IMG/VR virus record: IMGVR_UViG_2636416161_000001
Span: 1-19,016 of that record
Length of the DNA stretch: 19,016 nt
Source of the DNA: a virus
Taxonomy: Duplodnaviria; Heunggongvirae; Uroviricota; Caudoviricetes
Direction: 5' to 3' (one strand)
In this document: positions 1 to 16,324 of the stretch, piece by piece
Numbering within the stretch: position 1 is the stretch's first letter
How the letters are laid out: each line of letters starts with the position of its first letter
The notes under the pieces: model-generated
The model's input: only the letters and a program-made list of their open reading frames with translations
Told to the model about the DNA's origin: nothing
The model's database searches: none
Program-made: the position numbers and the translations under genes

Positions 1-2382
1 ACCGCTGTCATACATGCCTGCAAACGGAACCGCAGCAGCCGCTGCTCCACCAACCACCTGCACCTGTGCTTTGCCTTGTGTTTTATTATTTCCGGTCATC
101 CAGTCAGGCAGATAATCGGTGACTGAGGAAAGCTTGCTTTTTAGTGTCTCCCATTTGGCATTAATTCCATTAAGAATACTGTCAATAATGGCGCTGCCCA
201 TGTCCTGAAACTTCGCAGGAAGCGCGGCAACATCAGCCAAGATCGAATTCCATTTATCACTAATAGATTGCCTGATATTAGCCCACGCCTCAGAAACGCC
301 AGATTTTATTGCATCCCAATTTTTAGCTATTAATCCCGGCAAGGTATAATTAAAGAACAGTGATTTAATCCCCTCCCATGCGGCGCTGGCCTTTTCTTTA
401 ATCCAATCCCATGCCGTACCTGTGGCATTACATACGGCATCCCACATGGCCTTGAACTTTGGCCCAAGCGTGTCCCAATTGTGCCAGATATAAATAGCAC
501 CAGCGGCGATCAGCCCAATGACAGCCAGTATAGGATTTGCAAACATCAATCGGCCCAGCCATATAACTGACTTGCCAACAGAACTGATTGCTTTCCCAAT
601 AAGACCAAATGCAGATGAAAATTTTAGCCCCATCACCCCTGCGCTCATTCGCACTACTGCCATCGGCCCTAACACGGACGCCAGCGCCAGTGAAACAACC
701 CCAGCGGCGGTGGCAACAATGGCAAAGCCAGCTGCCAGCTTAAACAGCGCAGAGGTCAATTGTGGGTGTCGTTTAACAAAACCATCCAGACGCGAAGCCA
801 GTTCACCCAACCAGTCAGCCAGCTTCTTTAATGCAGGGGCAACTGTTTCACCGATACTAGCCATAGCATTGGTAAAGGAACCTGTAGCGGCTTCCCATTT
901 ATTACCAAGAGTATTTAAGGAGGCATCAACACGCTCGCGCAGAGAAGCCTGATTTTGTAGCTTTGAAGCCGTTTCACGATACCCTGAGATGCCTTTGGTA
1001 ATCATAATATTTAGCACCTGCAGCGTTTCCGCATCATCCCCAAAAATACCTTTTAACGTAGCTAACCTTTTCTCAGTATTAAGCTTTTGGAGTTGAGCTA
1101 ATTGCGTGTACATTTTCTCCAGCCCGCCAAACTCCCCCTTTCCATCAGTAAAATCGAACCTAACGCCAGTGCCTTTTAGTTCATCATTAGCATCCTTCAC
1201 TTTTTCCGTATTCATGACGGACTGAAATACTTTTCGGTAGGCATTACCAGCTGACTCTCCAGCCATACCAGCCTGATCAGCCATAACTAATAGAGGAGCA
1301 AATGTCTTAGCCGCGTCCAATCCCTTTTTATGAATAATATCCATCGCGCTGCTGATTTTTGAGAACCCCTGCAGCATATTTCCTGAATCTACCCCCGCGT
1401 AGAATCCTTTCTGGATCACGTCCATCAGATTCATCATATCTTTTTCTGAGGTCTGAGTAGCATCTTGTAACTTAGCCGCAAACTCAGCTGCTGCAGTGGG
1501 AGCCATCTGTAACTGCACGCCAAGATAAGCTGCTGACTCTCCCAAGCCGCCCAGGATGACCTGCGCCGACATACCCTGACGGCGTAGCATAGTCATCATG
1601 TTCTGAAAGTCGGCTGTTGTTCCCGGTAGCTTATCGCCCAAAGCAACTGCAAGCCGGTTAATTTTTTCAAATTCAGGCGCTACCTTTCCGCCCGGTCCCA
1701 TCATTGAACCGGCGAGCTGATTCGCTGCATTTTCTGATTCTGAATAGGCTTTTACTGGAGCCAACAACGTCATGCCAGTAGTTACCCCAGCCGCCATCGC
1801 CCCTGCACCATTACCTGCCAGAGAGTTCCTTAACTCGCGGGTCTTTTCAGCCTTGGCTTTGATGGCGTTGAGCTTTCGCTGACGCTCGCCAACGTCACGC
1901 AGCCTGCGCTCCTGCTCAGCCAACTGTCGGTTATACCGCTCAGTTTCTCGTGCAATCCGTGCCGTCTCACGCGCTCCGCCCCCAGCAGATAACCCCAGCC
2001 GATAAAGCTCAGCCCTGGCTGCCGCCATCTGGCGAGTTTCCTGTTGCTGTTTTTGTTCAAGACGTGAAACAGCACGCCACTGAGCTTCAAGCGCCTGCGT
2101 TTGTTTTTTTGTCGGGGATTCCAAAGATGACATTTCGCGCGTCATCATTTGAGCACGTAGCCTCGCCTGATCCAGTTCGGCACCAGTACGGCTAACACTT
2201 TGAGTTAGCTGATCGAAAGATTTAAGCTGACCTCCAGCATCACTCAGCTTTTTAATCTGATCGCGGGTTTGTCGAATAGCTGATGCCAGCTCCTTAGAGC
2301 CAGCCTGTGCATTTTTAAATGGGCGGGTTAACTTATCCACCGCCCCCAGAACTACCTGCAGTCGCAGGTTATTATCACTCAT
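1..2382 (-). CDS. T: Tail tape measure protein (gpT-like), 3' end outside the window
   Basis: ATG at 2382..2380; my by-eye translation reads MSDNNLRLQVVLGAVDKL... with no stop down to position 1 (about 794 codons). Not in the ORF track because it runs off the window edge. Position directly after E/E' matches P2 gene order. Trp/Gly/Ala-rich low-complexity C-terminal part. Confidence 0.75.
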   Translation of the reverse strand, partial: MSDNNLRLQVVLGAVDKLTRPFKNAQAGSKELASAIRQTRDQIKKLSDAGGQLKSFDQLTQSVSRTGAELDQARLRAQMMTREMSSLESPTKKQTQALEAQWRAVSRLEQKQQQETRQMAAARAELYRLGLSAGGGARETARIARETERYNRQLAEQERRLRDVGERQRKLNAIKAKAEKTRELRNSLAGNGAGAMAAGVTTGMTLLAPVKAYSESENAANQLAGSMMGPGGKVAPEFEKINRLAVALGDKLPGTTADFQNMMTMLRRQGMSAQVILGGLGESAAYLGVQLQMAPTAAAEFAAKLQDATQTSEKDMMNLMDVIQKGFYAGVDSGNMLQGFSKISSAMDIIHKKGLDAAKTFAPLLVMADQAGMAGESAGNAYRKVFQSVMNTEKVKDANDELKGTGVRFDFTDGKGEFGGLEKMYTQLAQLQKLNTEKRLATLKGIFGDDAETLQVLNIMITKGISGYRETASKLQNQASLRERVDASLNTLGNKWEAATGSFTNAMASIGETVAPALKKLADWLGELASRLDGFVKRHPQLTSALFKLAAGFAIVATAAGVVSLALASVLGPMAVVRMSAGVMGLKFSSAFGLIGKAISSVGKSVIWLGRLMFANPILAVIGLIAAGAIYIWHNWDTLGPKFKAMWDAVCNATGTAWDWIKEKASAAWEGIKSLFFNYTLPGLIAKNWDAIKSGVSEAWANIRQSISDKWNSILADVAALPAKFQDMGSAIIDSILNGINAKWETLKSKLSSVTDYLPDWMTGNNKTQGKAQVQVVGGAAAAAVPFAGMYDSG

Positions 2383-2811
2383 CGCTGGCCCCGCTTCTCT
2401 GAATTGCCTTATGCCGCCACTCCAGCACATCAGTCAGCGGCATAACGTCAGTGATGGACGGCGACCAGTGAAAGATGGTGGCAATATCTGCCACCAGATC
2501 ATCAACCGTCAGGTTGTCGGCAAATCGGCAAGCACCGACTTCGGCAACAAAAAAGTCACCACCTCTACAGCCATTGCTGTCAGATCGGCGGGGTCCAGCT
2601 CTGCCATTTCCTGCGCGGTCAGCGTCGGAGTGGAGATTCGCGGGATCACAGTCATCATCGCGCCCACGTCCATATCCATAATGGCCTGCAGACGGGTGCC
2701 ACGCAGTGCGCCGGACTGCGGCTTGCGCAGCACAATTTCGGTAATTTCAGTTTTACCGCGCATGATGGGAGTATCCAGTTTTACGGTCTTTTCAGTCAGT
2801 TTGTCGCTCAT
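2375..2811 (-). CDS. E+E' tail assembly chaperone fusion made by programmed -1 frameshift (about 145 aa)
   Basis: Slippery heptamer T_TTT_TTG in the zero frame at 2554..2548 of the minus strand. The -1 frame, translated by hand, stays open for 57 codons (VAEVGACRFADNLTVDDLVADIATIFHWSPSITDVMPLTDVLEWRHKAIQRSGASDE) to TGA at 2377..2375, overlapping the T start. Analogous to P2 E/E' and lambda G/GT. Confidence 0.6.
2509..2811 (-). CDS. E: Tail assembly chaperone gpE (zero-frame product, 100 aa)
   Basis: ORF-track ORF MSDKLTEKTVKLDTPIMRGKTEITEIVLRKPQ...; ATG at 2811; lies between FII and T as in P2. Confidence 0.8.
   Translation of the reverse strand: MSDKLTEKTVKLDTPIMRGKTEITEIVLRKPQSGALRGTRLQAIMDMDVGAMMTVIPRISTPTLTAQEMAELDPADLTAMAVEVVTFLLPKSVLADLPTT
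2548..2554 (-). promoter_or_regulatory. -1 ribosomal frameshift slippery site TTTTTTG (X_XXY_YYZ phase)
   Basis: Plus strand shows c-aaaaaa-g at 2548..2555; the minus strand reads AC-T TTT TTG in the E frame (codons ACT 2556..2554, TTT 2553..2551, TTG 2550..2548). Confidence 0.6.
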
Positions 2812-2836
2812 GTTCGTTTCCTGTTAATAAACTACT

Positions 2837-2854
2837 GGCGCGGCTGCCCGCGCC
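2837..2854 (-). terminator. GC-rich hairpin between FII and E (possible attenuating terminator or mRNA stabiliser)
   Basis: ggcgcgg (2837..2843) pairs with ccgcgcc (2848..2854) around a 4-nt loop. On the minus-strand transcript it is followed by AGUAGUUUAUUAAC, an interrupted U tract. Confidence 0.35.
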
Positions 2855-2865
2855 GTTAAGGTTAA

Positions 2866-3381
2866 TCAGAGGCCGAGGGCGTTACGGTGTTCTTCCATCA
2901 GGTCCACGCCGTCAACGATTTCAACCATGTTGACCAGATCGACCTCATAGAGCACTTCGCCGTTAATGGTCAGCTTCGCGTAGCTGTTGGTGCTACTGAC
3001 CTTGGTGCTGCTGCTCTCGCCGGTTTTCCACTCGCCGGAATCCACTTCTTTATGACGCCCGCGCACAACCAGCTCAACAGCCTGCACTTCGCCGGTATCG
3101 TCGCGCTGAATGGAACCGGTGAAACGCAGCTGGATGCCGTCAACGGTGGCCTTGCCCATCTGCTTGAATAACAGCAGTTCGGTGCCGCCGATTGAAAATT
3201 CCGTGTCCAGTGCGCCGTCATCCAGCCCCATGTCCACGTCCACCGCGCCCGGCATACCGCCGCCGCGATACTTCTCAAACTTGCGGGTGAATTTCGGCAG
3301 GGTCAGAGACTCAACGATCCCCTGCCAGTTGTTCCCGTCGTTGAACAGGTTCAGATGTTTTAACTTGCGTGGTAAAGCCAT
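2866..3381 (-). CDS. FII: Tail tube protein FII
   Basis: 171 aa ORF MALPRKLKHLNLFNDGNNWQG... with a C-terminal ...MEEHRNALGL, recognised as P2 FII-like; starts 9 nt after the FI stop. Confidence 0.9.
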   Translation of the reverse strand: MALPRKLKHLNLFNDGNNWQGIVESLTLPKFTRKFEKYRGGGMPGAVDVDMGLDDGALDTEFSIGGTELLLFKQMGKATVDGIQLRFTGSIQRDDTGEVQAVELVVRGRHKEVDSGEWKTGESSSTKVSSTNSYAKLTINGEVLYEVDLVNMVEIVDGVDLMEEHRNALGL

Positions 3382-3390
3382 GGTGTCCCC

Positions 3391-4563
3391 TTACGCGCTG
3401 ACCTGGCTGGAGAAATCCAGCAGGTACTGATCGGTGATGCGCTGGCGCAGCATCAGGTTTTCAAGCGGCGGCACCGGCGTGTAGTCGTAGTCGATGGTGA
3501 GCTTCCCGGCTTTCAGGGAGTCTTTATCGTTCACCGACTCATCCAGCCAGCAGTCAGCGCCGATGATGTAGCCCTGCGTTTTCAGGCTGCGCAGCTTGGC
3601 GCGGATACCTTCGATAATGTCACGGGCCAGCGACGGGTTAAGCACGCCATCCACCGCCCACATGTGCGCTTCTGCGATGGTGTCAGCCAGCACCTGCGCC
3701 GTGCGGGTGTAGTTCTCAAAGGCAAACAGCGGATCGTCACTGAGGCAGCGGGAACCCCAGAAGCGGAAGCCATCTTTGCGGATAAGCGTGGTGACATCAT
3801 TCTGGTTCAGCAGCCCCGCATCGGTTGCCGGGTCCTGCAGGTCCCAGAACACATCTGCAGAAATGCCGGTGACGCCATTCACGCCCACGTTGGACAGGGT
3901 TTTGTGCCAGCCGGTCTGCTCGTCAATTTTGGCACGCAGGCCGAGCGCACGGGCGGAGGCGTAAGCCGTCGCGTCTGCATTCAGCACGGTGTCAAAGTTG
4001 ATGAAGTCAGGCCAGATCAGCATCCCCTCGCGCTGACTGAAATTGTCACGGTAGGCAATCGCTTCTTCTACCGTTTTGCAGCCATAAGCGGACAAGTAGG
4101 CAAACCCGCGCAGGCTCTGCGCCACGCTCAACAGCTCAGTAGCAACCGCCTGCGTGTCATGCCCCGGCACGCCGAGAATGCGCGGCTTGACGCCCAGCTG
4201 CGACTGCGCCGAAAGCAGCGCTTTCATACCCGTTTTTTTACCGTCAGCGGTCACGCCGCCGATAATGTTGGAGGTTGTTTCCGCTTCGGTTTCGCCCTGT
4301 GCCACGCGCACAACGACGGTCACGGGTTTAGCCTGGTCGGCAATGGCATCCAGCGAGCGGGCCAGCGTGCCGGACTCACCCGCTTTGCCGCTGGCGGTCA
4401 GCACATCGGTCAGCAGGACCGGCTTATTGAGGGGAAACATGGACGCATCAGCATCATCGCCGGTGCAGACCATGCCCACGATGGCGGTGCTCACCGTGGT
4501 AATGGATCGGGTGCCCTCGTTGACTTCAACAACGCGCACCCCGTGGTGGTAATCCTGAGCCAT
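3391..4563 (-). CDS. FI: Contractile tail sheath protein FI
   Basis: ORF-track ORF 3391..4665; the likely real start is the internal ATG at 4563 ([19 protein letters not shown]...), preceded by GGAGAG. Recognised as P2 FI-like along its length (...[25 protein letters not shown]...). Confidence 0.9.
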
Positions 4564-4636
4564 AAGGCAGTCTCTCCGGTTACAGGGGGTCTGCTTATGT
4601 TCTGAATGATGAGCACATAACGCACGCATCCTGCTA

Positions 4637-4654
4637 TGTGTCAGGCATGGCACA
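4637..4654 (-). promoter_or_regulatory. TGT-N12-ACA dyad, candidate Ogr/Delta-dependent late promoter element for the FI operon
   Basis: tgt gtcaggcatggc aca; centre lies 82.5 bp upstream of the FI ATG, in the 104-bp gap between the invertase stop and the FI start. Confidence 0.5.
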
Positions 4655-4667
4655 ACAAGCGGCAAAA

Positions 4668-5234
4668 CTATTGAGTGGAAGCTAACGGAGTGGCAGGGAA
4701 TTTTTTATAAAGCGTAGATACCCCCACATCAAAAATAAGGGCCACTCTTTGCCGGGTTTCGCCTGCAGCAATTAACCGCCCGGCTTGCTCCCACTGTTCC
4801 GGCGTTAACTTAGGCCGCCGTCCTCCTATTCTTCCTTGTACTCTTGCAGCAGCTAATCCCGCACGAGTTCTCTCAACGATTAACTCACGTTCCATTTCAG
4901 CCAGGGCGCCCATGATGTGAAAGAAAAAGCGCCCCATGGGTGTCGAGGTATCAATGCTGTCCGTCAGACTGCGGAAATTAACAGCCCGCTGCCGCAGTTC
5001 CTCCACGAGAACCACCAGATGCCGCATACTGCGCCCAAGTCGATCAAGCTTCCAGACAACCAACGTATCTCCCGGTGACAGGGTTTTAAGCAGCTTTTTT
5101 AATCCGGGGCGGTCCGATGTTTTACCGCTCATTTTGTCCTCAAAAATCAGCTCACATCCTGACCGCTCCAGCGCATCACGCTGCAGCGCCGTGTTTTGTT
5201 CATTTGTTGATACGCGCACATAGCCAACCTGCAT
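4668..5234 (-). CDS. Serine DNA invertase (Hin/Gin/Cin/Pin family)
   Basis: [38 protein letters not shown]...[15 protein letters not shown]...[35 protein letters not shown]...GVSTLYKKF: catalytic-serine N-terminal motif, resolvase core and C-terminal HTH. Start taken as ATG 5234 (the ORF-track start 5252 is TTG). AAGGGAA precedes the ATG. Confidence 0.9.
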
Positions 5235-5288
5235 CTGTTTTCCCTTATGCAAAAGCCCGAATGATGCCAGCCAGGCAGGAAAACTGCA

Positions 5289-5314
5289 TTTTCTTAAACG
5301 TTGGTTTAGGAGGA
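5289..5314. repeat. Invertase crossover site 1 (gix/hix-like)
   Basis: ttttcttaaacg TT ggtttaggagga; the right half resembles the gix half-site as I recall it (GGTTTACAGGAA). The core TT occupies codon positions 2-3 of the alternative fibre frame. Confidence 0.55.
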
Positions 5315-5644
5315 GCCGCTAAGTTAGATGCAGCAAGTGCATCATTTGGAGAAAATGGCTGGTTGAGATTACCTGTGCTACTTGGCACTGATAAAAAGAC
5401 GCTTATCATTCAATGGGCATACGGCACAGCTGGAGGATCAAATTCTACAGGGCTTGTTTGTAACTTCCCTTTCACCTTTCCAAATCAGGTATTTACAGTT
5501 ATGACTGGTAATGTCGATCAGACATATACGTCAACCTCTATTCCTGGAGCGATAGGGTTCTGCAATGTTACAAGGGCGTCAATTATTGCAAAAAGCACCT
5601 TGTCATCATCAGAACAATTCTATTATCTGGCTATAGGTTATTAA
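5300..5644 (+). CDS. Promoterless alternative tail-fibre C-terminal segment (Sv'-like), expressed only after inversion
   Basis: Open frame ...VGLGGAAKLDAASASFGENGWLRLPVLLGTDKKTLIIQWAYGTAGGSNSTGL...QFYYLAIGY, homologous to the present H C-terminus (...[18 protein letters not shown]...FNYLAIGY). No start codon of its own; in frame with H across the crossover core. Confidence 0.7.
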   Translation, partial: VGLGGAAKLDAASASFGENGWLRLPVLLGTDKKTLIIQWAYGTAGGSNSTGLVCNFPFTFPNQVFTVMTGNVDQTYTSTSIPGAIGFCNVTRASIIAKSTLSSSEQFYYLAIGY

Positions 5645-5645
5645 T

Positions 5646-6077
5646 ATGGATAAGTTTTTTTATAGTCCTTCCAAAAATGAGTTTTATCTTTCTGATTTAA
5701 GATCTGAATACCTTAAATCAGGGGCGTGGCCTGAGGATTCAGTGGAAGTTAGCGATGATATTGTATTTAACTTTATTCAGACGCCTGCTGAAAAAGGAAA
5801 GATGAGAATAGCAGGTGATGACGGCCTTCCGGCATGGACAGATATACCAGCACCAACTCAAGAAGACATAATTGCTGCAAATGAAGACAAAAAAGCAGCC
5901 CTGCGCGTTATTGCAGATTCAGAAATAGCATGGCGACAGGATGCCGTTGATGTAGGCATCGCGACGGAAGTTGAAACCGCCGCGCTTACTGAATGGAAAA
6001 AATACCGGGTGCTGCTGATGCGTGTTGAAACAGCAGACCCGGAATGGCCTACGCCTCCGGCGACTCAGGCCAGTTAA
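5646..6077 (+). CDS. Tail fibre assembly protein (alternative copy, lambda Tfa-like)
   Basis: MDKFFYSPSKNEFY... N-terminus and ...TEWKKYRVLLMRVETADPEWPTPP C-terminus; ATG lies 1 nt after the alternative fibre stop. Confidence 0.8.
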   Translation: MDKFFYSPSKNEFYLSDLRSEYLKSGAWPEDSVEVSDDIVFNFIQTPAEKGKMRIAGDDGLPAWTDIPAPTQEDIIAANEDKKAALRVIADSEIAWRQDAVDVGIATEVETAALTEWKKYRVLLMRVETADPEWPTPPATQAS

Positions 6078-6483
6078 TATCTGGTGCGCCGGAGGTGTCT
6101 ACGGCCTCCAGCGCATCGAGATAATCCAGCCACAGATTATATTGCCCTTTTTCCACGTCTTTCAGGCGACCTAAAGCGGCTTTGCCGGGCCACTGCTTAC
6201 TATTGATGTAATTGTTCGCTTGTTCAATAAGGTATTGTTTTTTTGCTTCAGCATTTGCAATTAACTCATCTTGTGTAGGTTCAGGGCGCAGAACCCAGAC
6301 TGGCATGTTTTTATCGCTAACCCCACGAATCATTCCCTCAGGTGGAATTCCTGTGAACTCTATAAAAATAGAATCTTCTACATCAACTCCATCCTCCGGC
6401 CATGAGTCTGTTGCTTCGTATGAAGTTTTTAGCTCAAACGGATAGAAAGCATTTTTTGATGGACTAAAAATATAATTTCCCAT
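6049..6483 (-). CDS. Tail fibre assembly protein (copy expressed in the current orientation)
   Basis: MGNYIFSPSKNAFYPFEL... (ATG 6483, 1 nt after the H stop; the ORF track extends to 6495). C-terminus ...DINWPESPEA. Its 3' end overlaps the convergent tfa' by 29 nt. Confidence 0.8.
   Translation of the reverse strand: MGNYIFSPSKNAFYPFELKTSYEATDSWPEDGVDVEDSIFIEFTGIPPEGMIRGVSDKNMPVWVLRPEPTQDELIANAEAKKQYLIEQANNYINSKQWPGKAALGRLKDVEKGQYNLWLDYLDALEAVDTSGAPDINWPESPEA
6052..6097. other. Dyad symmetry at the overlapping 3' ends of the two tfa genes, near the centre of the invertible segment
   Basis: cgcctccggcg (6052..6062) and cgccggaggtg (6087..6097) form an 11-bp inverted repeat with one mismatch, with inner ccag/ctgg pairing. 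Dyad centre 6074.5 versus segment centre 6067.5. Confidence 0.4.
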
Positions 6484-6484
6484 G

Positions 6485-7882
6485 TCAGTACCCAATCGCT
6501 AAATAGTTAAAGGCATCCGAGTTAGCTGCGGCTGACTTCGCAATAAACCCAGTGGTAGTGGGCGACGAAATACCGACTGCTGCTGGCTGTTGTTCTGAAG
6601 TATAAGAGGGGTCAATCTGCCCGGTCGTAATGATGATAATCCCTGACGGGAATGGAATTGGGAACGTATTAGATATTCCCGTTGATGCTGAGTTACCTGC
6701 ATTCGCAGATCCCCACTGCAAAATGTATCCTCCCGGTAGTTTTTGATACCCAGATCCTGACGCGAAGGCGGACATGTCCGGTATCTGATTTGCCCCCGTC
6801 CCGACATTCCTTTTCGATGCCGTTCCCAAACCAAGGTATGCGAGAAGACCAGCTACATCCTTTCCACTCAAATGAGTCAGCGTATTGTCCAGCGGTTGTT
6901 TACCTGCCAGTGCATTAAGCATTGTCGTGGCAAAGTTCGGGTCATTCCCCAGCGCCGCCGCCAGTTCGTTCAGTGTATCCAGTGCCGCAGGTGCAGAACC
7001 CACCATTGCCGCAATCGCCGATTTCACAAAAGCCGTAGTGGCAATCTGTGTATTGTTGACCGACTGTGCCGCCGTGGGGGCTGTTGGCGTTCCGGTGAGT
7101 GCCGGACTCGACAACGGTGCTTTTAGTGCCAGCACATTGTTAATGGTGGTACTGAAATTCGGATCATTGTTAATGGCTGCGGCTATTTCTTTCAGCGTGT
7201 CCAGCGTGGCTGGCGCACCATTAATAAGGGCCGTCAGTGCCGCCTGTACAAACGCGGTGGTCGCAAGCTGCGTGGTATTATTCCCCGCCGCTGGCGTTGG
7301 CGCTTTGGGGGTTCCGGTAAACGTTGGACTTTCTTTGGGTGCATACTGTGAATGCGGGTCCGGCGCGGCAAGATGTTTTGCCATCAGGTCATCCACGTAC
7401 ACCTTCAGCTCCAGTGCCTTGTCATCCACATACTTGCGGGTTGCCAGCACTACAGCAGGGTCGATTTTCAGGGTGATATTGTCCGTGCTGCTGGTAATCA
7501 GCACCATGCGCACGGTCTGGGTACGCCCGCTGCCTTCAGCCAGTTGCGGCTTATAGCTTTCCGGGCAGTTGCCCACGGCAATCAATGCCCCGGACTCATC
7601 AAACAGACCCACTTCACGTATCCACCAACCACCCTCATTTTCAGGGATCACCTGTTCAGCAATAATCTGGCTGCTGTTCTGCGGGTCGATATAGAGCATA
7701 TTCAGCGCAGCCCGGCGTTTCTCATTTACCAGTGCCGTCTGCTTTGCGTCCGGCGTCGGCAATGCTCCGCCGCCATCGCCCACCGCCATATGGGTAATTT
7801 TTAGCGGCACACCGAGCGCGGCGGCGCTGGCAAGTTTCGCCGCGCCAATATCCGTCAGCAGGGTATAAAATTTTGTGCTCAT
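6485..7882 (-). CDS. H: Tail fibre protein gpH (constant N-terminal part plus currently fused variable C-terminus)
   Basis: 465 aa [42 protein letters not shown]..., recognised as P2 gpH-like at the N-terminus. Start overlaps the I stop (ATGA). C-terminus ends ...NYLAIGY. Confidence 0.9.
6821..6846. repeat. Invertase crossover site 2 (gix/hix-like), inside H
   Basis: cgttcccaaacc AA ggtatgcgagaa; left half close to the gix-type half-site TTCC..AAACC. Core is inverted relative to site 1 and in the same codon phase (H codons TAC CTT GGT TTG GGA = YLGLG). Confidence 0.55.
6887..7327 (-). repeat. Tandem duplicated module of about 74 aa (about 222 bp) inside H
   Basis: [72 protein letters not shown] and [72 protein letters not shown], visible also as diverged nucleotide repeats. 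Confidence 0.5.
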
Positions 7883-8484
7883 GGATTCACTCTCATTGTG
7901 TCAATAACATGGACCGCCCCGCCTTCATGCGCGGTGCCGCCGGAAATAATTGTTTCGTTGATATACGGATAGATCGTGATTTCTTCGCCAAGATAGCTGG
8001 CGGCCCCCACCCAATGCGGACCGCTGGTCTGCAGATTGATGGACATGCCGATCATGTGACGGCTACATGGTTTGGCATCGCTTATCAGCCGCTCAAGTTC
8101 CAGATAGGTATCTTCAGTGATGCCCTGGTCCTGCACGCCGATATCCAGGCGAAACGTGCCCGGTGTTTCTCCGGTCTGCCACCACTCAATAATGCGGATC
8201 AGGAAGCCGAACGGCTCCACCACCCGCCGTACGGCACTGGTGGTTCCTTTGTGCTGATGAATATAAAAAGCATCCTTCACTACCTGGCGTTTGACGCTTT
8301 CTGTCCAGCCCTCGTCCCAGCGATCCACAGAGAACGCCCAGGCGAGATAAGGCAGGAAACTGACCGGACAGGTTGCCGGATTCCACAAGTCACGAAGCGG
8401 CACCTGCAGATCAGAAATCCCGCTGCAGGTTTGCGCCAGTCGGCGCTCCAGTGAAGTTGAACCCGGTGGCAGCAGACTATTCAT
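7879..8484 (-). CDS. I: Baseplate assembly protein gpI
   Basis: 201 aa ORF ...[29 protein letters not shown]...GTFRLDIGV..., recognised as P2 gpI-like; ATG 8484; stop overlaps the H start. Confidence 0.85.
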
Positions 8485-9385
8485 CCGTTCCTCCGTTGGT
8501 TACGCTCCACTGCGTACATGATGCGGCCTGTGTTTTGTTCAGGACCACATCCGCCAGCGGTGAAGCCAGCTCCACACGTTGAACCCCCTCAACATGCAGC
8601 GCGGCAAAAATGGCACTACGGCGAATATCCCGACCAAGCCGCGTCTGACTGGCGATGTACTTCTGCAGGCTGGCTTTTGCCGCTGCCATTACCGGCTCCG
8701 CTTCCGGTCCCGGATAGAGAAAAATGGAGGCTTCCACACGTTACGGGATGATTTCTGCACTGCGAACCGTCAGACGGTCAGCCACCGGGCGGACGTTCTC
8801 ACTGTTCAGGGCTTTTTCCACCACATCCAGCAGGTCTTTTTCTGCTGTTCCGTCGCCTTCGCGGCTAAGGACTGTCAGCACCACCTCTGCAGGTGCCGGA
8901 CTGGTTGCACTGGCATCCGCCACCCGACCGTCGGCGCTTCGGGCATGAAATTCATAAGCTGCAGTTGGCCCCGCAACTGAAAGCCCCTCAAAGGCTGCAG
9001 GCACACGCAGGCGTAACGCTTCATCGCTTTCCATCACAGCTGCAACGGGCGGCACAGCGTCATCATCAGCAGGCGTCACCGTCAGGCGTTTCACGTTGTA
9101 GTTGGCAGCGAGCTGGTCAAGATCGCTGCCCATCGCGTAAGCCACCATCACAGCCTGCGCGGCTTCGTTAATGCGCTGGCGCAGAAGCAACTCACGGTAA
9201 GCGTTCTCCTGCAGCAATTTGGTGACGGGTTCAGATTCCAGTTCCAGCGTGCGGATCACTGCTTCCTGCTCATCTTTCGGATGAAGCGCCACAAATTCGG
9301 CCTTGCGTTCGGCAAGCAGCGTCTCAAAGTCCGGCACATCCACAATCTGCGGCGCAGGCAACTGCGAAAGGTCAATCACTGCCAT
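8477..9385 (-). pseudogene. J: Baseplate protein gpJ interrupted by an in-frame TAA (ochre) at 8743..8741
   Basis: Two ORF-track ORFs, 8741..9424 and 8477..8737, are in the same frame, separated only by TAA plus one codon: ...RLTVRSAEIIP * RVEASIFLYPGPEAEP.... Likely start MAVIDLSQLPAP at 9385 (AGGAG upstream). Joined length is about 302 codons. Confidence 0.7.
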
Positions 9386-9731
9386 TCTCTGCTCCTGTTG
9401 ATACGGAAAGGGAAACAGGCACACCGTTATTACGCCGCCCGGTCAGCTCCACCACCATAGAACCGTCAAAGTTGCTGTTGATGGTGATGGAATCAAGCGT
9501 CAGCCGTGGCTCCCAGCGACTCAGCGCCGCATACACTGCCGACATGACCTGCAGGCGTAATGCCGGATTTTGTGGCTGGTCTATCAGTGCCGACAGCAGG
9601 GAACCATATTCCCGACGGGCAATGCGGCTACCCTGTGGCGTCAGCAGAATGTCCCGCACCGACTGGCGCAGATGGTCAATATCAGTAATGACTTTGCCGC
9701 TGGTATTGTTCATCCCGCTATAAAGCGTCAT
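9372..9731 (-). CDS. W: Baseplate wedge protein gpW (gp25/GPW family)
   Basis: 119 aa ORF MTLYSGMNNTSGKVITDIDHLRQSVRDILLTPQGSRIARREYGS...; ATG 9731 overlaps the V stop. Confidence 0.85.
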   Translation of the reverse strand: MTLYSGMNNTSGKVITDIDHLRQSVRDILLTPQGSRIARREYGSLLSALIDQPQNPALRLQVMSAVYAALSRWEPRLTLDSITINSNFDGSMVVELTGRRNNGVPVSLSVSTGAENGSD

Positions 9732-10306
9732 ACCGGGCCTCCGGTTGTATCGCCGCCTTTCAGGACGCCGGTATGCTGATGCGCATCAACCACGATCCCG
9801 TTAGAACTCATCGCTCCGCCGCCCTGGGTAACGCCACCATTGATCACCACTTCGCTGTTAATGCGCGTGCGGTCAGCCTCCAGTACAAACTCACTGGTTT
9901 TCATGGTGATGTTGTCAGCGGCCTCAATGACCATTGATTTGATGCCCCTGACATACCAGCGCCCGGTGGCGGGTTCGTATTCAAACCAGCCACCGTCAGG
10001 ATGTTCTGTCACGCAGGCGTCCGCCGACGTCGACGGTGGCGCGAACTGATTCGAATAGATGGCGGGTAACGCAAAGGCGGTTTCCAGATTGCCGCCCAGA
10101 CTCAGCAGCACCACCTGCTCACCTTCCGATGGTCGCCACCATGTGCGGGCATTCCCGGCACGCAGCGTCAGCCAGCTGATCCAGTTGGTTTCAAGCTCGC
10201 CCGTTTTCACCCGGCAAAGCCAGTTTTCCCTGTCCACTTCGGTGACTACCCCAGTGCGGATCAGGTTGGTGATAAGGCGCATGATTTCGGTTAATTGTGC
10301 GTTCAT
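9728..10306 (-). CDS. V: Baseplate central spike protein gpV
   Basis: 192 aa ORF MNAQLTEIMRLITNLIRTGVVTEVDRENWLCRVKTGELETNWISWLTLRAGNARTWWRPSEGEQ..., recognised as P2 gpV-like. Confidence 0.85.
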   Translation of the reverse strand: MNAQLTEIMRLITNLIRTGVVTEVDRENWLCRVKTGELETNWISWLTLRAGNARTWWRPSEGEQVVLLSLGGNLETAFALPAIYSNQFAPPSTSADACVTEHPDGGWFEYEPATGRWYVRGIKSMVIEAADNITMKTSEFVLEADRTRINSEVVINGGVTQGGGAMSSNGIVVDAHQHTGVLKGGDTTGGPV

Positions 10307-10352
10307 AGGGAAAGGTTGCCATCAGGGGAAGAAAGGCGGCAGTGCTGCAACT

Positions 10353-10370
10353 TGTATCAGTGCTGATACA
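10353..10370 (-). promoter_or_regulatory. TGT-N12-ACA dyad (perfect 20-bp palindrome TTGTATCAGTGCTGATACAA), candidate late promoter element for the V operon
   Basis: Located in the 68-bp S-V gap; centre is 55.5 bp upstream of the V ATG; no Shine-Dalgarno evident before V. Confidence 0.5.
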
Positions 10371-10374
10371 AAGA

Positions 10375-10821
10375 TCACTCCGCCAGCCATTGCAGAATCA
10401 TGTCGCGGGTCATTGCCTCAACATCATCATTTACACCCAGCAGGCGGCGCTCTGCGTAACGGACCTCCGGTCCTTTGCGACTGACGCGATCACGCAGGCC
10501 GTAATGGTGAACACGGGCAATACGCTGCACCTTGCCTTCAAACTGTACGCTGGCAGAGTCGGCGCTGGCGGCAGTTTTCAGGTATTTTGTGGTGCGCAGC
10601 TTTGCAAACATCTGACGTTTGATGCGGCCTTTTTTACTGCGTGCTGTTACCCGTCGCGGTTCATAGCTGCTGCCGTCAGGGTTGCGCTGCATCCTGATGT
10701 TCTGCTGCTGTGTCCGGCGCAGTTCCTGCGCCAGCTGGCGCATCATGCGACTTCTGGCGGCTGGCTCCAGATTCGCCAGCAAGGCACTCAGCCAGTCGTC
10801 CACTTTCTGCAGTTCAGCCAC
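10375..10821 (-). CDS. S: Tail completion / virion morphogenesis protein gpS
   Basis: 148 aa ORF ...RNPDGSSYEPRRVTARSKKGRIKRQMFAKLRT...; start codon at 10821 is GTG, overlapping the R stop. Confidence 0.8.
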   Translation of the reverse strand: MAELQKVDDWLSALLANLEPAARSRMMRQLAQELRRTQQQNIRMQRNPDGSSYEPRRVTARSKKGRIKRQMFAKLRTTKYLKTAASADSASVQFEGKVQRIARVHHYGLRDRVSRKGPEVRYAERRLLGVNDDVEAMTRDMILQWLAE

Positions 10822-11245
10822 GTTTCACCGTCCACATTTCTTCAGGTTCATCAGGTTCCGCTACAGCTTCAACGCTCGACACACTGCCGTCAGTGCTGAC
10901 CAGCACACGCTCCGTCAGTTGCAGGTTCAGGCTGATATCACAGACATCGTTGCGCAGAATATCCACCTCAAAGGTGAATAGTTTTTCCCGTAACGCCGGG
11001 TTATTGATGGCATCGGGCTGGTTATCCCTCAGCCACAGCAAAACCGGGGCCATCAGCAGATTCTGGTCGCCGCTGAAATCCTCAATCACCGCATTCAGGG
11101 TGTAACGGTACTCCCACGACATGGAGCTGGCCCCCGTGGCAACCAGCGAACCGTTATCCACAAACAGATGCAGTTTGTCCGGGTTATTGCGGACATAAGG
11201 CACCGCTTTATTGAGGGCGTGGCGCAGGGATTGTGGTTTGTTCAC
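10814..11245 (-). CDS. R: Tail completion protein gpR
   Basis: ...LHLFVDNGSLVATGASSMSWEYRYTLNAVIEDFSGDQNLLMAPVLLWLRDNQPD...; the ORF-track start 11266 is TTG. Preferred start is GTG at 11245 (VNKPQSLRHAL), preceded by AGGAG at -8. Confidence 0.75.
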   Translation of the reverse strand: MNKPQSLRHALNKAVPYVRNNPDKLHLFVDNGSLVATGASSMSWEYRYTLNAVIEDFSGDQNLLMAPVLLWLRDNQPDAINNPALREKLFTFEVDILRNDVCDISLNLQLTERVLVSTDGSVSSVEAVAEPDEPEEMWTVKRG

Positions 11246-11498
11246 TGTTTCGCTCCTGACACGCAATAATCATGTCCACTTTGTCTGCACAGACCGCCCA
11301 GGCGGCCTCCGTTTCATCCAGCAACGCGTCCAGATCACCGTTAGTGCGCGGCGTTGCCTGCTCCAGCCGACACGGCGTCACTCGCGGACAACCACTGACG
11401 GTAAGCTGCACCTCCGGTGAGTGTCGGACGTTCCCGCAGCCGGATAATGTCAGCAGGCAAAGGAGTATCAGCCCAGCGGCGTAAATCCTCGTTCTCAC
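11208..11498 (-). CDS. Rz1-like outer-membrane lipoprotein o-spanin (LysC-like), embedded out of frame in lysB and running into R
   Basis: MRTRIYAAGLILLCLLTLSGC... has a lipobox LSGC and a Pro-rich mature part. GTG start at 11498 preceded by GAGGAG. Overlaps lysB (11341..11769) in another frame. Confidence 0.65.
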   Translation of the reverse strand: MRTRIYAAGLILLCLLTLSGCGNVRHSPEVQLTVSGCPRVTPCRLEQATPRTNGDLDALLDETEAAWAVCADKVDMIIACQERNSEQTTIPAPRPQ

Positions 11499-11769
11499 GT
11501 TTCAGCTCCTCGATCCGGTGTTGTCGTTGTCTCAGCAGCGCGCTGGTCTGTTCTGCTTCGGCATAGAGCCGCGCCTGCTCCCGGTTATTTGTTTCAGTCA
11601 GAATGGACAGGCTAATAAGCTGGCTGTTGCTCTTTGCCAGTGCCTGGCTTTTGCTCTGCAGCTCGTCTGACTGCGTGCTGATGGTCTGGCTGGCATCAGC
11701 CAGCCGCCACGTCTGCCAGCCCAGCGCCGCCAGTAATAACGCCAGCACAACCAGCAGCAACCGGTTCAT
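11341..11769 (-). CDS. Rz-like i-spanin (LysB-like)
   Basis: N-terminal TM segment MNRLLLVVLALLLAALGW, then a coiled-coil-type charged region (...QRQHRIEELKRENEDLRRW...); ATG 11769 overlaps the lysA stop. Confidence 0.75.
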   Translation of the reverse strand: MNRLLLVVLALLLAALGWQTWRLADASQTISTQSDELQSKSQALAKSNSQLISLSILTETNNREQARLYAEAEQTSALLRQRQHRIEELKRENEDLRRWADTPLPADIIRLRERPTLTGGAAYRQWLSASDAVSAGAGNAAH

Positions 11770-12143
11770 GCTGCTACCTGTTGCGCCATCTGATTACGGG
11801 TGATCCAGAAGGCAATAACGGTCAGCAGATAAAAGACCAGGGTAATAGCCCACCCCGTCCAGGCGAGACTTACGACAACCAGCAATCGCATCACCCAACT
11901 GATAAATACGTTTTCTTTTCGGGTAATTGTCTTCAGCAAAGATGCCCTTAACTCCTGCCAGAGCGGGCTATTCTTAATTAACGCAGCCAGTGCTACCGGA
12001 ATTACCGCCCATGTCAGCAAACAGGCTACCCAAACGCCGGACGCTGCCAGTACCGGAAAAATCCCCTGCGGATACACCATTGCTGCGATTAACAACGCCA
12101 TCCATAACATCAGAAACAGTCCGCTGATTAATTTCTTTTTCAT
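11766..12143 (-). CDS. LysA-like polytopic membrane protein (lysis timing; function inferred)
   Basis: MKKKLISGLFLMLWMALLIAAMVYP... with about 4 hydrophobic segments. ATG at 12143 is 1 nt after the endolysin stop and preceded by GGGAG; the ORF-track start at 12215 is an upstream extension into the endolysin. Confidence 0.6.
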   Translation of the reverse strand: MKKKLISGLFLMLWMALLIAAMVYPQGIFPVLAASGVWVACLLTWAVIPVALAALIKNSPLWQELRASLLKTITRKENVFISWVMRLLVVVSLAWTGWAITLVFYLLTVIAFWITRNQMAQQVAA

Positions 12144-12144
12144 T

Positions 12145-12657
12145 TCAGTTTGCTCCCTGTAAACACCAGGCCATCTCCCGCGCACGGCGGTTATCCAGCC
12201 CCTGATTAAACACACCTTTTACATAAACCCAGCGCGGCAACTGTCGGCACGCATCCGCCCAGCGCCGCTGATTGAGCAATTTCACCAGCGTGGAGCTGCA
12301 GGCATTGCCTGTCCCCACGTTGAAGGCAAACGACACCACCGAGTCATACACCTTTTGTGGCGGCTGTTGCTTCACACATCTTTCCAGCGCCCGCTCCACA
12401 CGCAGCACGTTGGAGATAAGCCCTTCTGCTGCCTGTCGTTCCGTAATGGTTTTGCCGGGAATGACGCCCGACGTATTACCAATGCCGTCAGTCCATACAC
12501 CCGCGCTGCACTGATACGGCTGCAGACGACAGCCTTCGTAATCGGCAATCAGTTTCAGTCCTTCCACGGAGGTGTGAAGCTGCTGAAAACCCGGCAGCGT
12601 GGCAGCAATAGCCAGCACGGTCCCGACAAGGCAGCGTTTAACGATTGATGGATTCAT
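12145..12657 (-). CDS. SAR (signal-anchor-release) endolysin, T4-lysozyme-like
   Basis: N-terminal weakly hydrophobic Gly/Ala-rich segment KRCLVGTVLAIAATLPG, then a lysozyme catalytic region (VEGLKLIADYEGCRLQPYQ...GVWTDGIGNT) resembling the phage 21 R / P1 Lyz type. Confidence 0.8.
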   Translation of the reverse strand: MNPSIVKRCLVGTVLAIAATLPGFQQLHTSVEGLKLIADYEGCRLQPYQCSAGVWTDGIGNTSGVIPGKTITERQAAEGLISNVLRVERALERCVKQQPPQKVYDSVVSFAFNVGTGNACSSTLVKLLNQRRWADACRQLPRWVYVKGVFNQGLDNRRAREMAWCLQGAN

Positions 12658-12853
12658 AGTCCTCCCGCGTGATCTGCCCGTCGCGCAGAAGCTGGTAGGC
12701 TTTGTGTTTGTAGTACCAGTTGATAGCCAGCATCAGCACACCGATCATCAGGCCGCCCAGCGTTGAGGCATCCTTGATGGACAAATCGCCCAGCCAGGCC
12801 AGCACGACGGCGATGCAATACGTGATAAAGGCGCTGATTCGCTCAAGCGTCAT
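12638..12853 (-). CDS. Small two-TMD holin (pinholin-like)
   Basis: 71 aa with two hydrophobic segments (ISAFITYCIAVVLAWLG; LGGLMIGVLMLAINWYY) and a charged C-terminus. Overlaps the endolysin start by 20 nt and sits directly upstream of a SAR endolysin. Confidence 0.7.
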   Translation of the reverse strand: MTLERISAFITYCIAVVLAWLGDLSIKDASTLGGLMIGVLMLAINWYYKHKAYQLLRDGQITREDYESINR

Positions 12854-12856
12854 AAT

Positions 12857-13060
12857 TCAGTCCCATAGCTGGACGGTCTGCACGGTGGTGGTTGTCGGAA
12901 TGTCCGGCAGCTCCACCTGCAGCCCGTGAGGTAAAAAGGGGCCATATTCGGCAAGCCCCGGATTTGCCTTCAGTACCTGCTCCGTGACACCCTGCGTGCG
13001 CCCGTAATGACGCCAGCAAAGCGCGTCCACCGTGTCATACTGATGCGCACGCACTTTCAT
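12857..13060 (-). CDS. X: Tail protein gpX
   Basis: 67 aa ORF MKVRAHQYDTVDALCWRHYGRTQGVTEQVLKANPGLAEYGPFLPHGLQVELPDI... recognised as P2 gpX-like; ATGA overlap with L. Confidence 0.8.
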   Translation of the reverse strand: MKVRAHQYDTVDALCWRHYGRTQGVTEQVLKANPGLAEYGPFLPHGLQVELPDIPTTTTVQTVQLWD

Positions 13061-13524
13061 CAGATAAGCTCCACTGTGCAGTGCGGCGCGTCCTGTACCC
13101 GGCTGATGGCCCAGCGGGCGTCACGCCATAAATCACCGCTGGCTTCCGCCAGTTCCTCGCCCCGCTTCACACCGGATGCCGTGGCGTCATAGTCCTGGTA
13201 ACGTTCGTTGAGCATGGCGCGTGCCCAGCAGTAAACCGCGTTGAAATAGTGCTGAATGCGCTCACTTTTGCCGTCCAGCTGTTCCGCCGGAACCTCTGCC
13301 AGCGAGGCATACCCCAGCATCTGCTGGCGTCTGCGAAACTCATACAGCTCTGCGTTGACCTCCGAAATTGCCGACAGCGCAACCTGCTTTAAACGCGGCT
13401 GCGTCACCGTGCCGTCAGTGCGCATGACACTGCGAAACTCCGACAGGTCCACATCAGGCCAGAACGGCGTATTTCTGATGATTTCCGCCTGTTCCGGTGC
13501 CTGTTCTGGCGCAACAAACTTCAT
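13060..13524 (-). CDS. L: Head completion / stabilisation protein gpL
   Basis: ...FWPDVDLSEFRSVMRTDGTVTQPRLKQVALSAISEVNAELYEFRRRQ...; preferred start ATG 13524 (MKFVAPEQ...) with AGGAGA at -8. The ORF-track start at 13587 is GTG, giving 175 aa. Confidence 0.8.
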   Translation of the reverse strand: MKFVAPEQAPEQAEIIRNTPFWPDVDLSEFRSVMRTDGTVTQPRLKQVALSAISEVNAELYEFRRRQQMLGYASLAEVPAEQLDGKSERIQHYFNAVYCWARAMLNERYQDYDATASGVKRGEELAEASGDLWRDARWAISRVQDAPHCTVELI

Positions 13525-13619
13525 GCTGCTTTCTCCTGAAATAGAGGGCGGTGGACGGGGTTTTGATGTGGCAGTGCCTTTCGCCACCCCGTGCCGCCCG
13601 TGCGCGGGGGCACGTTCTG

Positions 13620-14270
13620 TCAGCGGCTGTCATTGCGCAGTCTGCGCTCCAGCTGCTGTTTGTCTTTTTTCACGCCACAGCGGGGATCGAGCTGTAACGC
13701 ATGGTTGAGATGATTAAGGGCAGACGCCGGATTGCTTTCACTCAGGACCGCGCCAATCGCTTTATGCAGACGCGCCCGTGACTGGTCCGGCATATCCAGA
13801 CCGTCTGTCAGCTCCAGCGTCTGCAGCAACAGATCGGCATCAAAGCCGGTGGTGGCAAGCATTGCGCTCTGCGCGGCGTCTGCCATTTCCTCTGCCAGCA
13901 CGGTCTGCACGTTGCGGTTACCCAGCGGCATCACCCAGCCATGACGCAGGGCATGACGCCCGATCTCCAGCGCTCCGGCATAATCTCCGGCATCAATGCG
14001 CCACAGCATCACGTACATCAGCACGTCATCCTGTTGAGCGCCTCCGGCAGCCAGGACACCCTCTGCCCAGGCGGCGTACTTCGGCAGCAGCTCCACCTTG
14101 ATTTCCGCTTTTTTGACCGTGGACTGAACGCCCTTGAGACGGCGGCGGTCTTCCGCCAGTTGCAGCAGCATCAGGTCATAGCCCGATGCGTGGCGAACAC
14201 TGCCGCCCTCGCGGGCGGCCTGTTCAGCCTGAACGCGCAGGCGATGCTGCCGTGCGGGACTCAGGCTCAT
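13620..14270 (-). CDS. M: Terminase small (endonuclease) subunit gpM
   Basis: 216 aa ORF MSLSPARQHRLRVQAEQAAREGGSVRHASGYDLMLLQLAEDRRRLK...GAQQDDVLMYVMLWRIDAGDYAGALEIGRHAL... recognised as P2 gpM-like. Confidence 0.85.
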   Translation of the reverse strand: MSLSPARQHRLRVQAEQAAREGGSVRHASGYDLMLLQLAEDRRRLKGVQSTVKKAEIKVELLPKYAAWAEGVLAAGGAQQDDVLMYVMLWRIDAGDYAGALEIGRHALRHGWVMPLGNRNVQTVLAEEMADAAQSAMLATTGFDADLLLQTLELTDGLDMPDQSRARLHKAIGAVLSESNPASALNHLNHALQLDPRCGVKKDKQQLERRLRNDSR

Positions 14271-14273
14271 GGA

Positions 14274-15332: not shown

Positions 15333-15348
15333 CGGGTTTTGTGCTCCA

Positions 15349-16182: not shown

Positions 16183-16260
16183 GAGCCGTGCTCCGTTAGA
16201 AAAAACTTACTGGAGCCTTATGGTTGCGGTGATGGGGGCAGTGAAACAATGCGCGGTATT

Positions 16261-16278
16261 TGTACCGACAACCACACA
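16261..16278. promoter_or_regulatory. TGT-N12-ACA dyad in the divergent O/P intergenic region (candidate late promoter element for O, P or both)
   Basis: tgt accgacaaccac aca; centre is 87.5 bp from the O ATG and 55.5 bp from the P ATG. It is the only perfect dyad in the 142-bp gap. Confidence 0.5.
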
Positions 16279-16324
16279 AACCGCAGGCGGGGAAAGCCTT
16301 CATTCAAGGCTGTAGGTTTGTGCC

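Follow-up and report, generated by a model that had tools for sequence, protein, structure and literature searches.

The window analyzed here is a stretch of 19,016 nt (IMGVR_UViG_2636416161_000001, positions 1 to 19,016), to which all coordinates below refer. It carries the P2 late genes in the set and order of Q, P / O N M L X, lysis, R S V W J I H G, then FI FII E E' T, and its open reading frames match the Pfam families Phage_cap_P2, Phage_GPO, Phage_GPL, Phage_term_smal, Phage_tail_X, Tail_P2_I, Phage_tube and Phage_TAC_7. In the near-identical loci L009 and L010, the portal, gpR, gpS, V, W, J, GpE, tape measure, U and D were seen. All of the P2 late genes being intact in the window, including those for terminase, scaffold, capsid, head completion, lysis, baseplate and tail, the element has the appearance of a complete phage. 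The accessory hotspot of this P2-like prophage, between G and FI, is the site of a serine invertase gene and of an adjoining segment composed of two convergent cassettes (Sv' with tfa', and tfa with Sv) flanked by inverted crossover sites (Table 1). P2 itself carries fun(Z) between G and FI and no invertase there, which agrees with the original prediction that P2 is without such a switch.

Table 1. Features of the invertible tail-fibre locus, in window coordinates.
Feature	Position	Strand	Remarks
Serine DNA invertase, Gin/Pin/Cin/Hin ('Din') group	4668..5234	-	188 aa; ATG start at 5234
Candidate Fis-dependent recombinational enhancer	5145..5216	-	putative; invertase gene nt 19-90, position as in P1 record
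Crossover site L, invertase-proximal	5289..5314	+	TTTTCTTAAACG-TT-GGTTTAGGAGGA; core 5301-5302
Sv', silent alternative H C-terminal part	5300..5644	+	Gp53-like_C 5.4e-11; stop 5642-5644; 113 residues past core codon
Invertible segment	5303..6832	.	1530 bp between the two core dinucleotides; flipped in L011, L009, L003
tfa', silent tail-fibre assembly protein paired with Sv'	5646..6077	+	Pfam Caudo_TAP 3.6e-29
tfa, tail-fibre assembly protein, the one expressed at present; equivalent of P2 G	6049..6483	-	Caudo_TAP 1.1e-32
H, tail-fibre protein	6485-7882	-	465 aa; Phage_tail_fib and Gp53-like_C domains
Sv, variable C-terminus of H expressed at present, Leu350 to Tyr465	6485..6835	-	Gp53-like_C 2e-13, H residues 381-465
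Crossover site R, inside gene H	6821..6846	-	reverse complement TTCTCGCATACC-TT-GGTTTGGGAACG; core 6833-6834
Hc, constant N-terminal part of H, residues 1-349	6836..7882	-	Pfam Phage_tail_fib 2.9e-65

The invertase matches the Pfam families Resolvase (PF00239, 2.8e-50) and HTH_7 (PF02796, 5e-14) as well as PHROG 125, 'DNA invertase' (1.7e-92), and its residues 1-182 align with the solved Mu Gin structures 3uj3/4m6f (1.3e-86), the YVRVSTN catalytic-serine motif included. Together with its sequence identity to PinE of the E. coli K-12 element e14 (83%, the closest invertase compared), P1 Cin (78%) and Mu Gin (72%), these matches bear out the serine invertase that had been predicted here. Alignment with gin, pin and cin places the start codon at 5234 and not at a TTG at 5252, so that 54 bp separate it from site L. 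The 5' end of the gene, where an enhancer is annotated for P1, may also hold a recombinational enhancer. The candidate stretch is identical to the P1-annotated enhancer (cin nt 19-90) at 57 of 72 positions, a comparison that is confounded by coding constraint, and it includes a perfect match to the Fis-consensus 15-mer GNNYRNNWNNYRNNC at invertase nt 71-85 (window 5150-5164); this 15-mer is kept in gin, pin and cin and lies inside the coding region. Inversion would presumably depend on Fis and the enhancer.

Both crossover sites are 26 bp in length, display imperfect dyad symmetry, lie in inverted orientation and, if both are read in one direction, have a common TT core. A half-site weight matrix, derived from the annotated-record sites of Mu gix, e14 pix and P1 cix, scores site L at 25.6 bits and site R at 20.1 bits, whereas the runner-up position in the window reaches 9.3 bits and the maximum over 100 shuffles is 14.0. 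The original prediction had described two inverted 26-bp gix/hix-like sites and had set the comparison with site models beforehand as a possible refutation; the gix/pix/cix matrix clearly matches both. Sites L and R are also the sole two matches to AAACCNNGGTTT at no more than one mismatch in the 19-kb window, a count that carries little weight by itself because at least two matches also arise in 18 of 200 shuffles. Each site departs from AAACC..GGTTT, site L by having AAACG and site R by having GGTAT, and the same departures are present in the functional e14 pix and P1 cixR sites, the GGTAT half of site R being common to P1 cixR. Parental and recombinant sites differ only outside a shared TTGGTTT (5301-5307), and cleavage would be expected exactly at the TT. 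The crossover point is narrowed further by locus L014, whose homology with the window breaks off right behind the core (5302). A multi-site shufflon of the kind seen in p15B Min and in the second E2348/69 prophage was considered and ruled out, no third site scoring above background; with two sites only, the locus represents a simple switch and not a shufflon.

Site R lies within the H coding sequence, where it codes for LLAYLGLGT with its core at positions 2-3 of Leu350, and in either frame the core dinucleotide makes up codon positions 2-3, as had been claimed. When the segment is inverted in silico, the result is an in-frame H' of 463 aa with tfa' directly after its stop codon. Hc is identical in H and H'; the core codon is codon 350 (Leu, CTT), and the 115 residues after it in H are exchanged for 113. 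The prediction that inversion would swap some 114 C-terminal residues of H and bring in the alternative end's own tfa' thus holds on both counts, and so does its description of the layout as nearly mirror-symmetric around convergent, overlapping tfa genes, since tfa and tfa' converge with a 29-bp overlap (6049-6077). At the protein level, Sv and Sv' are 42% identical, and the products of tfa and tfa' 37%. Real proteins that run on in frame from Hc into Sv' are known (P0062-P0065). For annotation purposes, the RefSeq 'gp53-like domain-containing protein' at 5300-5644 is in fact the alternative C-terminal end of H in its silent state. A promoter/terminator scan of 4400-7000 returned counts matching shuffle expectation, and Tandem Repeats Finder reported no DNA repeat in H. 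The repeat of the H shaft is visible at the protein level only.

Comparison between isolates shows that both orientations of the same prophage occur in nature. An E. coli assembly, GCA_036437145.1 (L011), harbors the same prophage, in which the invertase protein is identical and the segment flipped: window 1-5311 aligns at 99.94% (3 mismatches over 5311 bp), 5298-6834 at 99.94% on the opposite strand (1 over 1537 bp) and 6824-10234 at 99.88% (4 over 3411 bp). With so few mismatches, this flip must be very recent. Inversion predicts two 46-bp recombinant junctions, and both are exactly present in L011. The flipped junctions are marked by GCATACCTTGGTTTAGGAGG and TTAAACGTTGGTTTGGGAAC, and by GCATACC-TT-GGTTTAGGAGG and TTAAACG-TT-GGTTTGGGAAC. 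The segment, within which Sv falls, is also flipped in L009 (99.8% segment identity) and L003 (97.5%), and the alignments of all three copies switch strands in overlapping intervals, namely 5298-5311 at one end and 6824-6834 (L009, L011) or 6824-6837 (L003) at the other. In L009, the H-side junction equals the prediction at 46 of 46 positions and H' is one residue off the predicted protein. The complete genome of E. coli E47, which with L009 makes two flipped genomes besides GCA_036437145.1, has the recombinant junctions a-TT-d and c-TT-b, while the window's orientation is found for the same prophage in L010, L012 and L016. GCA_012374675.1 is another isolate that has this prophage. We are highly confident in reading the locus as a tail-fibre switch that an invertase drives between two states, of the type known from the Mu G segment, the P1 C segment and the e14 P segment, and residing in a P2-like E. 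coli prophage; on the evidence of the compared genomes, the switch is real and has been active recently.

According to the mechanism we propose, the serine invertase would bind both inverted 26-bp sites, probably with the assistance of a Fis-bound enhancer at the 5' end of its own gene, and would cut both at the central TT/AA dinucleotide and rotate the 1530-bp segment. The 349 constant residues of H stay in frame through the exchange, owing to the placement of the core at codon positions 2-3 in either frame. In the present state, Hc would be joined to Sv and followed by tfa (H, 465 aa); in the flipped state, it would be joined to Sv' and followed by tfa' (H', 463 aa). Expression would be restricted to whichever cassette faces the late promoter that lies upstream of H, and a lysogenic population would consequently release particles with one or the other of two receptor-binding tips, the orientation of the segment deciding which tip a phage carries. 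By analogy with related systems, the two tips may confer different host ranges; the label 'host-range switch' in the original prediction overstates what is an argument from analogy.

A real switch might also serve a purpose other than phage host range, for instance by diversifying a domesticated, tailocin-like particle or through some other function beneficial to the host. Such a role gains some plausibility from L009, which carries the same switch in a prophage without window 12868-15784 (X, L, M, N and part of O) and would therefore be head-less and make tail-like particles at most, and from the P2-related tailocins with invertible fibres cited in the literature, which include carotovoricin (reference 46 of PMC4272514) and the Xenorhabdus tailocins (PMC13280938). 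For the element in the window, whose full P2 late gene set is intact, we nevertheless regard this role as quite improbable.

The orientations seen elsewhere might, alternatively, record old events, the switch in this isolate being a frozen relic whose anatomy is intact and whose inversion has ceased, e.g., through a defective enhancer or defective invertase expression. In line with this suggestion, loci with the identical invertase are mostly parental (L010, which represents five assemblies, plus L012 and L016), only L011 being flipped, and the enhancer is putative. However, the invertase reading frame is intact with its catalytic motif, and the flip in L011, as judged from the mismatch counts above, is very recent. 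Moreover, several draft contigs bearing this invertase (L015, L013) begin 16-220 bp into the segment, and many database H proteins labelled 'partial' end at residues 345-348, right at the site; contig starts near the site and truncated H proteins of this kind are expected if mixed orientations break assemblies. On this evidence, a relic is very improbable, and draft assemblies are likely to break at the switch locus. Finally, that the opposite orientations reflect homologous recombination between prophages or misassembly, and not invertase-catalyzed site-specific recombination, is scarcely credible: it is common for an E. coli genome to contain several P2-like prophages whose H genes are alike (matches at up to 5-6 places per genome) and L009 and L011 are draft assemblies, but the two sites share just a 7-bp run of identity (TTGGTTT), far under the needs of RecA-dependent exchange, the junctions lie exactly at TTGGTTT in three independent genomes, the complete E47 among them, the two junctions are reciprocal, as conservative inversion predicts, and an invertase of the right family adjoins the segment.

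The distribution of the invertase-driven switch was surveyed in several collections. Hc-like sequences are present in approximately 1300 of 5426 complete E. coli genomes, and the best-listed Hc matches end at the site or about 20 bp beyond it. Among the GTDB species representatives scanned, neither H-side junction and no relative of Sv' turned up, and the cassette pair is rare outside E. coli isolates. Scanning metagenomes for either junction yielded two contigs, both in parental orientation, which lend no further support to inversion. One metagenome contig, L007, ends approximately 40-55 bp inside the segment. In a megablast of a phage collection, only Hc and gene I found matches, the cassette and the invertase having none, and the switch is absent from all sequenced phages of that collection.

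Tail-fibre segments that invert have belonged to the textbooks since Mu, P1 and e14, and the switch described here is an ordinary case of this well-described class, with nothing conceptually new. Its value is that of a clearly resolved case, whose junctions are exact in natural isolates, for cataloguing the receptor-binding cassettes of P2-like phages. The most similar sites are those of e14: counted by eye, pix TTTTCATAAACG-TT-GGTTTGGGAGAA matches site L at 23 of 26 positions and pix CTCTCGAAAACC-TT-GGTTTGGGAGAA matches site R at 21 of 26, with a TT core in every case. The layout fibre-tfa-[tfa'-fibre']-invertase is also the same, tfaP and tfaE of e14 converge with the same 29-bp overlap as tfa and tfa', and the 54-bp gap between site and start codon is alike in the window, Mu and e14 (by coordinate arithmetic for the latter two). 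However, e14 is a defective lambdoid-type remnant with a pseudogenized stfE, whereas the window's switch resides in an apparently complete P2-like prophage, and the variable cassettes of the window, which encode Gp53-like_C tips, are of a different type from those of e14. In cultured cells, the e14 segment has been demonstrated to invert (PMC4272514).

The Mu G/Gin and P1 C/Cin systems belong to the same mechanism class, and they share with the window 26-bp sites centred on AAACC-NN-GGTTT and an alternative fibre C-terminus with its own assembly protein. They differ in that the invertible segments of Mu (G) and P1 (C) are 3-4.2 kb in length as compared with 1.53 kb, and in that the variable parts of the Mu and P1 fibre proteins (S/U) are unrelated to those of the window. 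The Mu core is GA/TC in place of TT, and in P1 cixL overlaps the end of cin, whose orientation differs from that of the window's invertase. Among P2-like elements, Fels-2 of Salmonella encodes the Fin invertase. Fels-2 and the P2-like prophages of E2348/69 resemble the window in host phage family and, as described, in principle. Sequencing and PCR of the E2348/69 prophages identified a two-variant inversion in one and a three-repeat shufflon in another (Goldberg et al. 2014, PMC4272514), and both rearrangements alter the C-terminus of one protein (PMC4272514). More generally, DNA invertases are often located in the Z/fun hotspot of P2-like phages, where adjacent genes are inverted (Egorov et al., bioRxiv 10.1101/2024.10.15.618418).

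We further suggest, tentatively and with more doubt than conviction, that the 26-bp sites may also act as portable junctions through which whole receptor-binding cassettes are swapped between prophages. If so, invertase-mediated recombination between elements, or with quasi-sites, would drive the shuffling of tail-fibre modules; the idea is an old one for P1 and p15B, and the gain would be modest for that reason. Three observations are consistent with such exchange. Among the best-listed E. coli matches to Hc, as noted above, similarity breaks off at the site or some 20 bp beyond it. The same cassette (96-100% identical) is found beside two invertase alleles that have 73% DNA identity and whose flanking spacers fail to align, and in locus L014 a half-site is fused, exactly behind the TT core, to the end of a foreign tfa gene.

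Decisive evidence for inversion at sites L and R comes from a lookup of contigs encoding exactly the window's invertase protein, which recovered the same prophage in both orientations. Whereas the contigs L010, L012 and L016 are colinear with the window at 99.98-100% identity, contig L011 (GCA_036437145.1) is colinear only in the flanks (99.94% identity over window 1-5311, 99.88% over 6824-10234) and carries the segment 5298-6834 on the other strand at 99.94%. Both predicted 46-bp recombinant junctions occur in L011 as exact strings, and the parental junctions are absent (0/2). E. coli E47, a complete genome, has the segment at 97.5% identity, reversed with respect to the sequence on either side; its two junctions are exactly the reciprocal recombinants, in which TT links the outer half of one window site with the inner half of its partner. 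A search with the tail-fibre protein predicted after inversion (H') also showed that such 463-aa proteins exist in E. coli (P0062 to P0065); of these, P0062 comes closest, being one residue off the prediction, and its contig (L009, GCA_017057915.1) carries the flipped segment at 99.8% identity with an H-side junction as predicted at 46/46 positions. The original prediction of an invertible tail-fibre switch therefore stands, in observation and interpretation alike, and the feature is real and recently active, but ordinary.

Feature coordinates in the window (Sv, variable C-terminus of H; Sv' and tfa', the silent alternative pair)
Feature	Position	Strand	Description
T (partial), then E/E'	window start		tape measure; first genes in window order
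FII	2866-3381		tube
FI	3391-4563		sheath; followed by the switch
Invertase	4668-5234	minus	Resolvase and HTH_7 domains
Site L	5289-5314		TTTTCTTAAACG-TT-GGTTTAGGAGGA
Sv' open frame	5300-5644	plus	same Gp53-like C-terminal domain as H
tfa'	5646-6077	plus	tail-fibre assembly protein
tfa	6049-6483	minus	tail-fibre assembly protein
H	6485-7882		465 aa; P2-type N-terminal collar domain, Gp53-like C-terminal domain
Site R	6821-6846		as reverse complement, TTCTCGCATACC-TT-GGTTTGGGAACG
I	7879-8484		after the switch; then baseplate J, W, V, then S, R, lysis genes, X, L, M, N, O
P	16325-18091	plus	large terminase

Since the heptamer TTGGTTT (5301-5307) is common to parental and recombinant sites, which can be told apart only by the bases beyond it, the crossover maps to these 7 bp. 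RecA-dependent homologous exchange could be invoked for the flipped copies, but such exchange needs much more than 7 bp of common sequence; misassembly, for its part, would not produce junctions that are reciprocal and exact to the site in three genomes independently. In a further locus, L014 1-160 (GCA_032027565.1), matching window 2285-5302, the invertase is identical, site L is reduced to its outer half and identity stops exactly after the TT at 5302, a break that fits cleavage at the central TT dinucleotide. Beyond the core, L014 is unrelated to the window and carries the 3' terminus of another tfa-like gene (ending in IDELKALDIAEPVTWPSLPA), with its stop codon abutting the core; the locus resembles a derivative, locked or with a deletion, that may have arisen through quasi-site recombination.

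When up to one mismatch is allowed, AAACCNNGGTTT matches the window at sites L and R and nowhere else, but this count alone is not significant, since 18 of 200 shuffles reach at least two matches. A 12-bp half-site weight matrix, trained on Mu gix, e14 pix and P1 cixL/cixR from the annotated records (L004, L005 and L006, respectively), scores the two sites at 25.6 and 20.1 bits (known sites, 28-31), against 9.3 for the next best window position and 14.0 for the top of 100 shuffled windows. Their deviations from consensus are also seen in functional sites (AAACG in an e14 pix site, GGTAT in P1 cixR). Because the scan yields exactly two sites in the window, the switch has two states, and a shufflon was rejected on the same count.

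Within H, the TT core supplies codon positions 2-3 of Leu350, and it occupies positions 2-3 in the Sv' frame as well; when 5303-6832 is inverted in silico, the result is an uninterrupted frame for a 463-aa H' with tfa' immediately after it. The original prediction was base-accurate in placing the 26-bp sites and correct in calling them gix/hix-like, in its reading of the core's codon phase in both frames and in expecting that inversion would swap the H C-terminus together with its own tfa'. The convergent tfa and tfa' overlap by 29 bp (6049-6077), and identity is 42% for Sv versus Sv' and 37% for tfa versus tfa'. From this geometry, only the cassette facing the constant part of H would be expressed; a promoter and terminator scan added nothing on cassette expression. 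By analogy with Mu, P1 and carotovoricin, and given the 42% Sv/Sv' identity, the two tips may confer different host ranges. Separately, the H shaft (window 6880-7318, residues 189-335) contains two tandem 73-74-residue repeats with 44 residues identical, which Tandem Repeats Finder did not detect at the DNA level; H of the prophages L001 and L002 (391 aa) has a single hybrid copy, the form that unequal crossing-over of the two repeats would be expected to leave.

Among NCBI entries for H, many that are marked 'partial' (P0018, P0020, P0022-P0025) end at residues 345-348, a short way before Leu350 (codons 345-349 correspond to window ~6836-6850); one such sequence is present on 148 contigs, and several draft contigs with the window's invertase start 16-220 bp inside the segment. 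Both patterns hint, circumstantially, at mixed orientations in the cultures sequenced. Draft assemblies appear to break at site R, as would be expected if cultures hold both orientations or if the constant part of H is common to several prophages.

The invertase aligns with crystallised Mu Gin over 182 residues (E = 1.3e-86), including the YVRVSTN catalytic-serine motif; its identity is higher with PinE (83%) than with Cin (78%) or Gin (72%). For Gin and Hin, dimer binding, synapsis, staggered cuts, serine linkage, subunit rotation and religation are established (Gin tetramer structure, PMC3575834). By homology, invertase dimers would bind both sites and then synapse them, cut the TT/AA core with a 2-bp stagger to form covalent serine linkages, and rotate subunits by 180 degrees before religation. 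Invertase nt 19-90 match the equivalent annotated P1 enhancer at 57/72 positions, a likeness confounded by coding constraint, and a Fis-consensus 15-mer at nt 71-85 is common to gin, pin, cin and the window gene; under the same confounding, the stretch is compatible with a candidate Fis-dependent enhancer. The gap between site and start codon is 54 bp in Mu, e14 and the window (record coordinates), so that invertase and proximal site form one inherited unit.

The feature belongs to the Din group of invertible segments. It comes closest to the P-segment of e14 and its PinE invertase, as judged from the identity of the invertases, the sequence of the sites, the TT core, the spacing and the 29 bp by which the tfa genes overlap. 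An overlap of this length recurs in e14 tfaP/tfaE (L005 3518-3546) and in L001-L003 (L003 being the E47 locus); Mu U and U', unlike tfa and tfa', do not overlap. In E. coli E2348/69, sequencing and PCR have demonstrated tail-fibre inversions within P2-like prophages (PMC4272514), and programmed inversions across bacteria are enriched in genes for tail fibres, for their assembly proteins and for 'phage tail protein I' (PMC9881135). In the literature, we found no description of this cassette pair, and the feature is therefore filed as a further case of a known class.

The window corresponds to the late-gene region of an E. coli prophage of the P2 type, mostly on the minus strand, with matches to P2-specific Pfam families throughout and a gene set also present in near-identical loci; 4/4 feature proteins have exact sequence matches in NCBI E. 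coli records (e.g. CDP75840-CDP75843). Since the G-to-FI interval of P2 itself is occupied by fun(Z), the V-operon terminator and the pF promoter and contains no invertase, the switch module is an accessory addition at a known hotspot of P2, Z/fun, where invertases were previously noted (bioRxiv 10.1101/2024.10.15.618418). The invertible cassette (window 5303-6832) is 96-100% identical in four other E. coli prophages (L001, L002, L003 and L009), whereas across window 4668-5288 their invertase is ~73% identical in DNA and 80% in protein and the 54-bp spacer is unalignable; their sheath gene is 86% identical. Two invertase alleles thus serve one and the same cassette, and homology in this sharply mosaic region breaks off at site L. 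At 3015/3016, the flipped L009 lacks 2.9 kb equivalent to window 12868-15784, a stretch with the genes X, L for head completion, M for the small terminase, N for the capsid and part of the scaffold gene O; this prophage is predicted to be unable to make heads, its tail genes and switch being retained. At the other end of the window, positions 1-45, inside the tape-measure gene, have a 97.8% identical copy ~145 bp past the window end in related loci, positioned ~189 bp beyond the match end in L010-L013, which suggests that gene T contains a short internal repeat.
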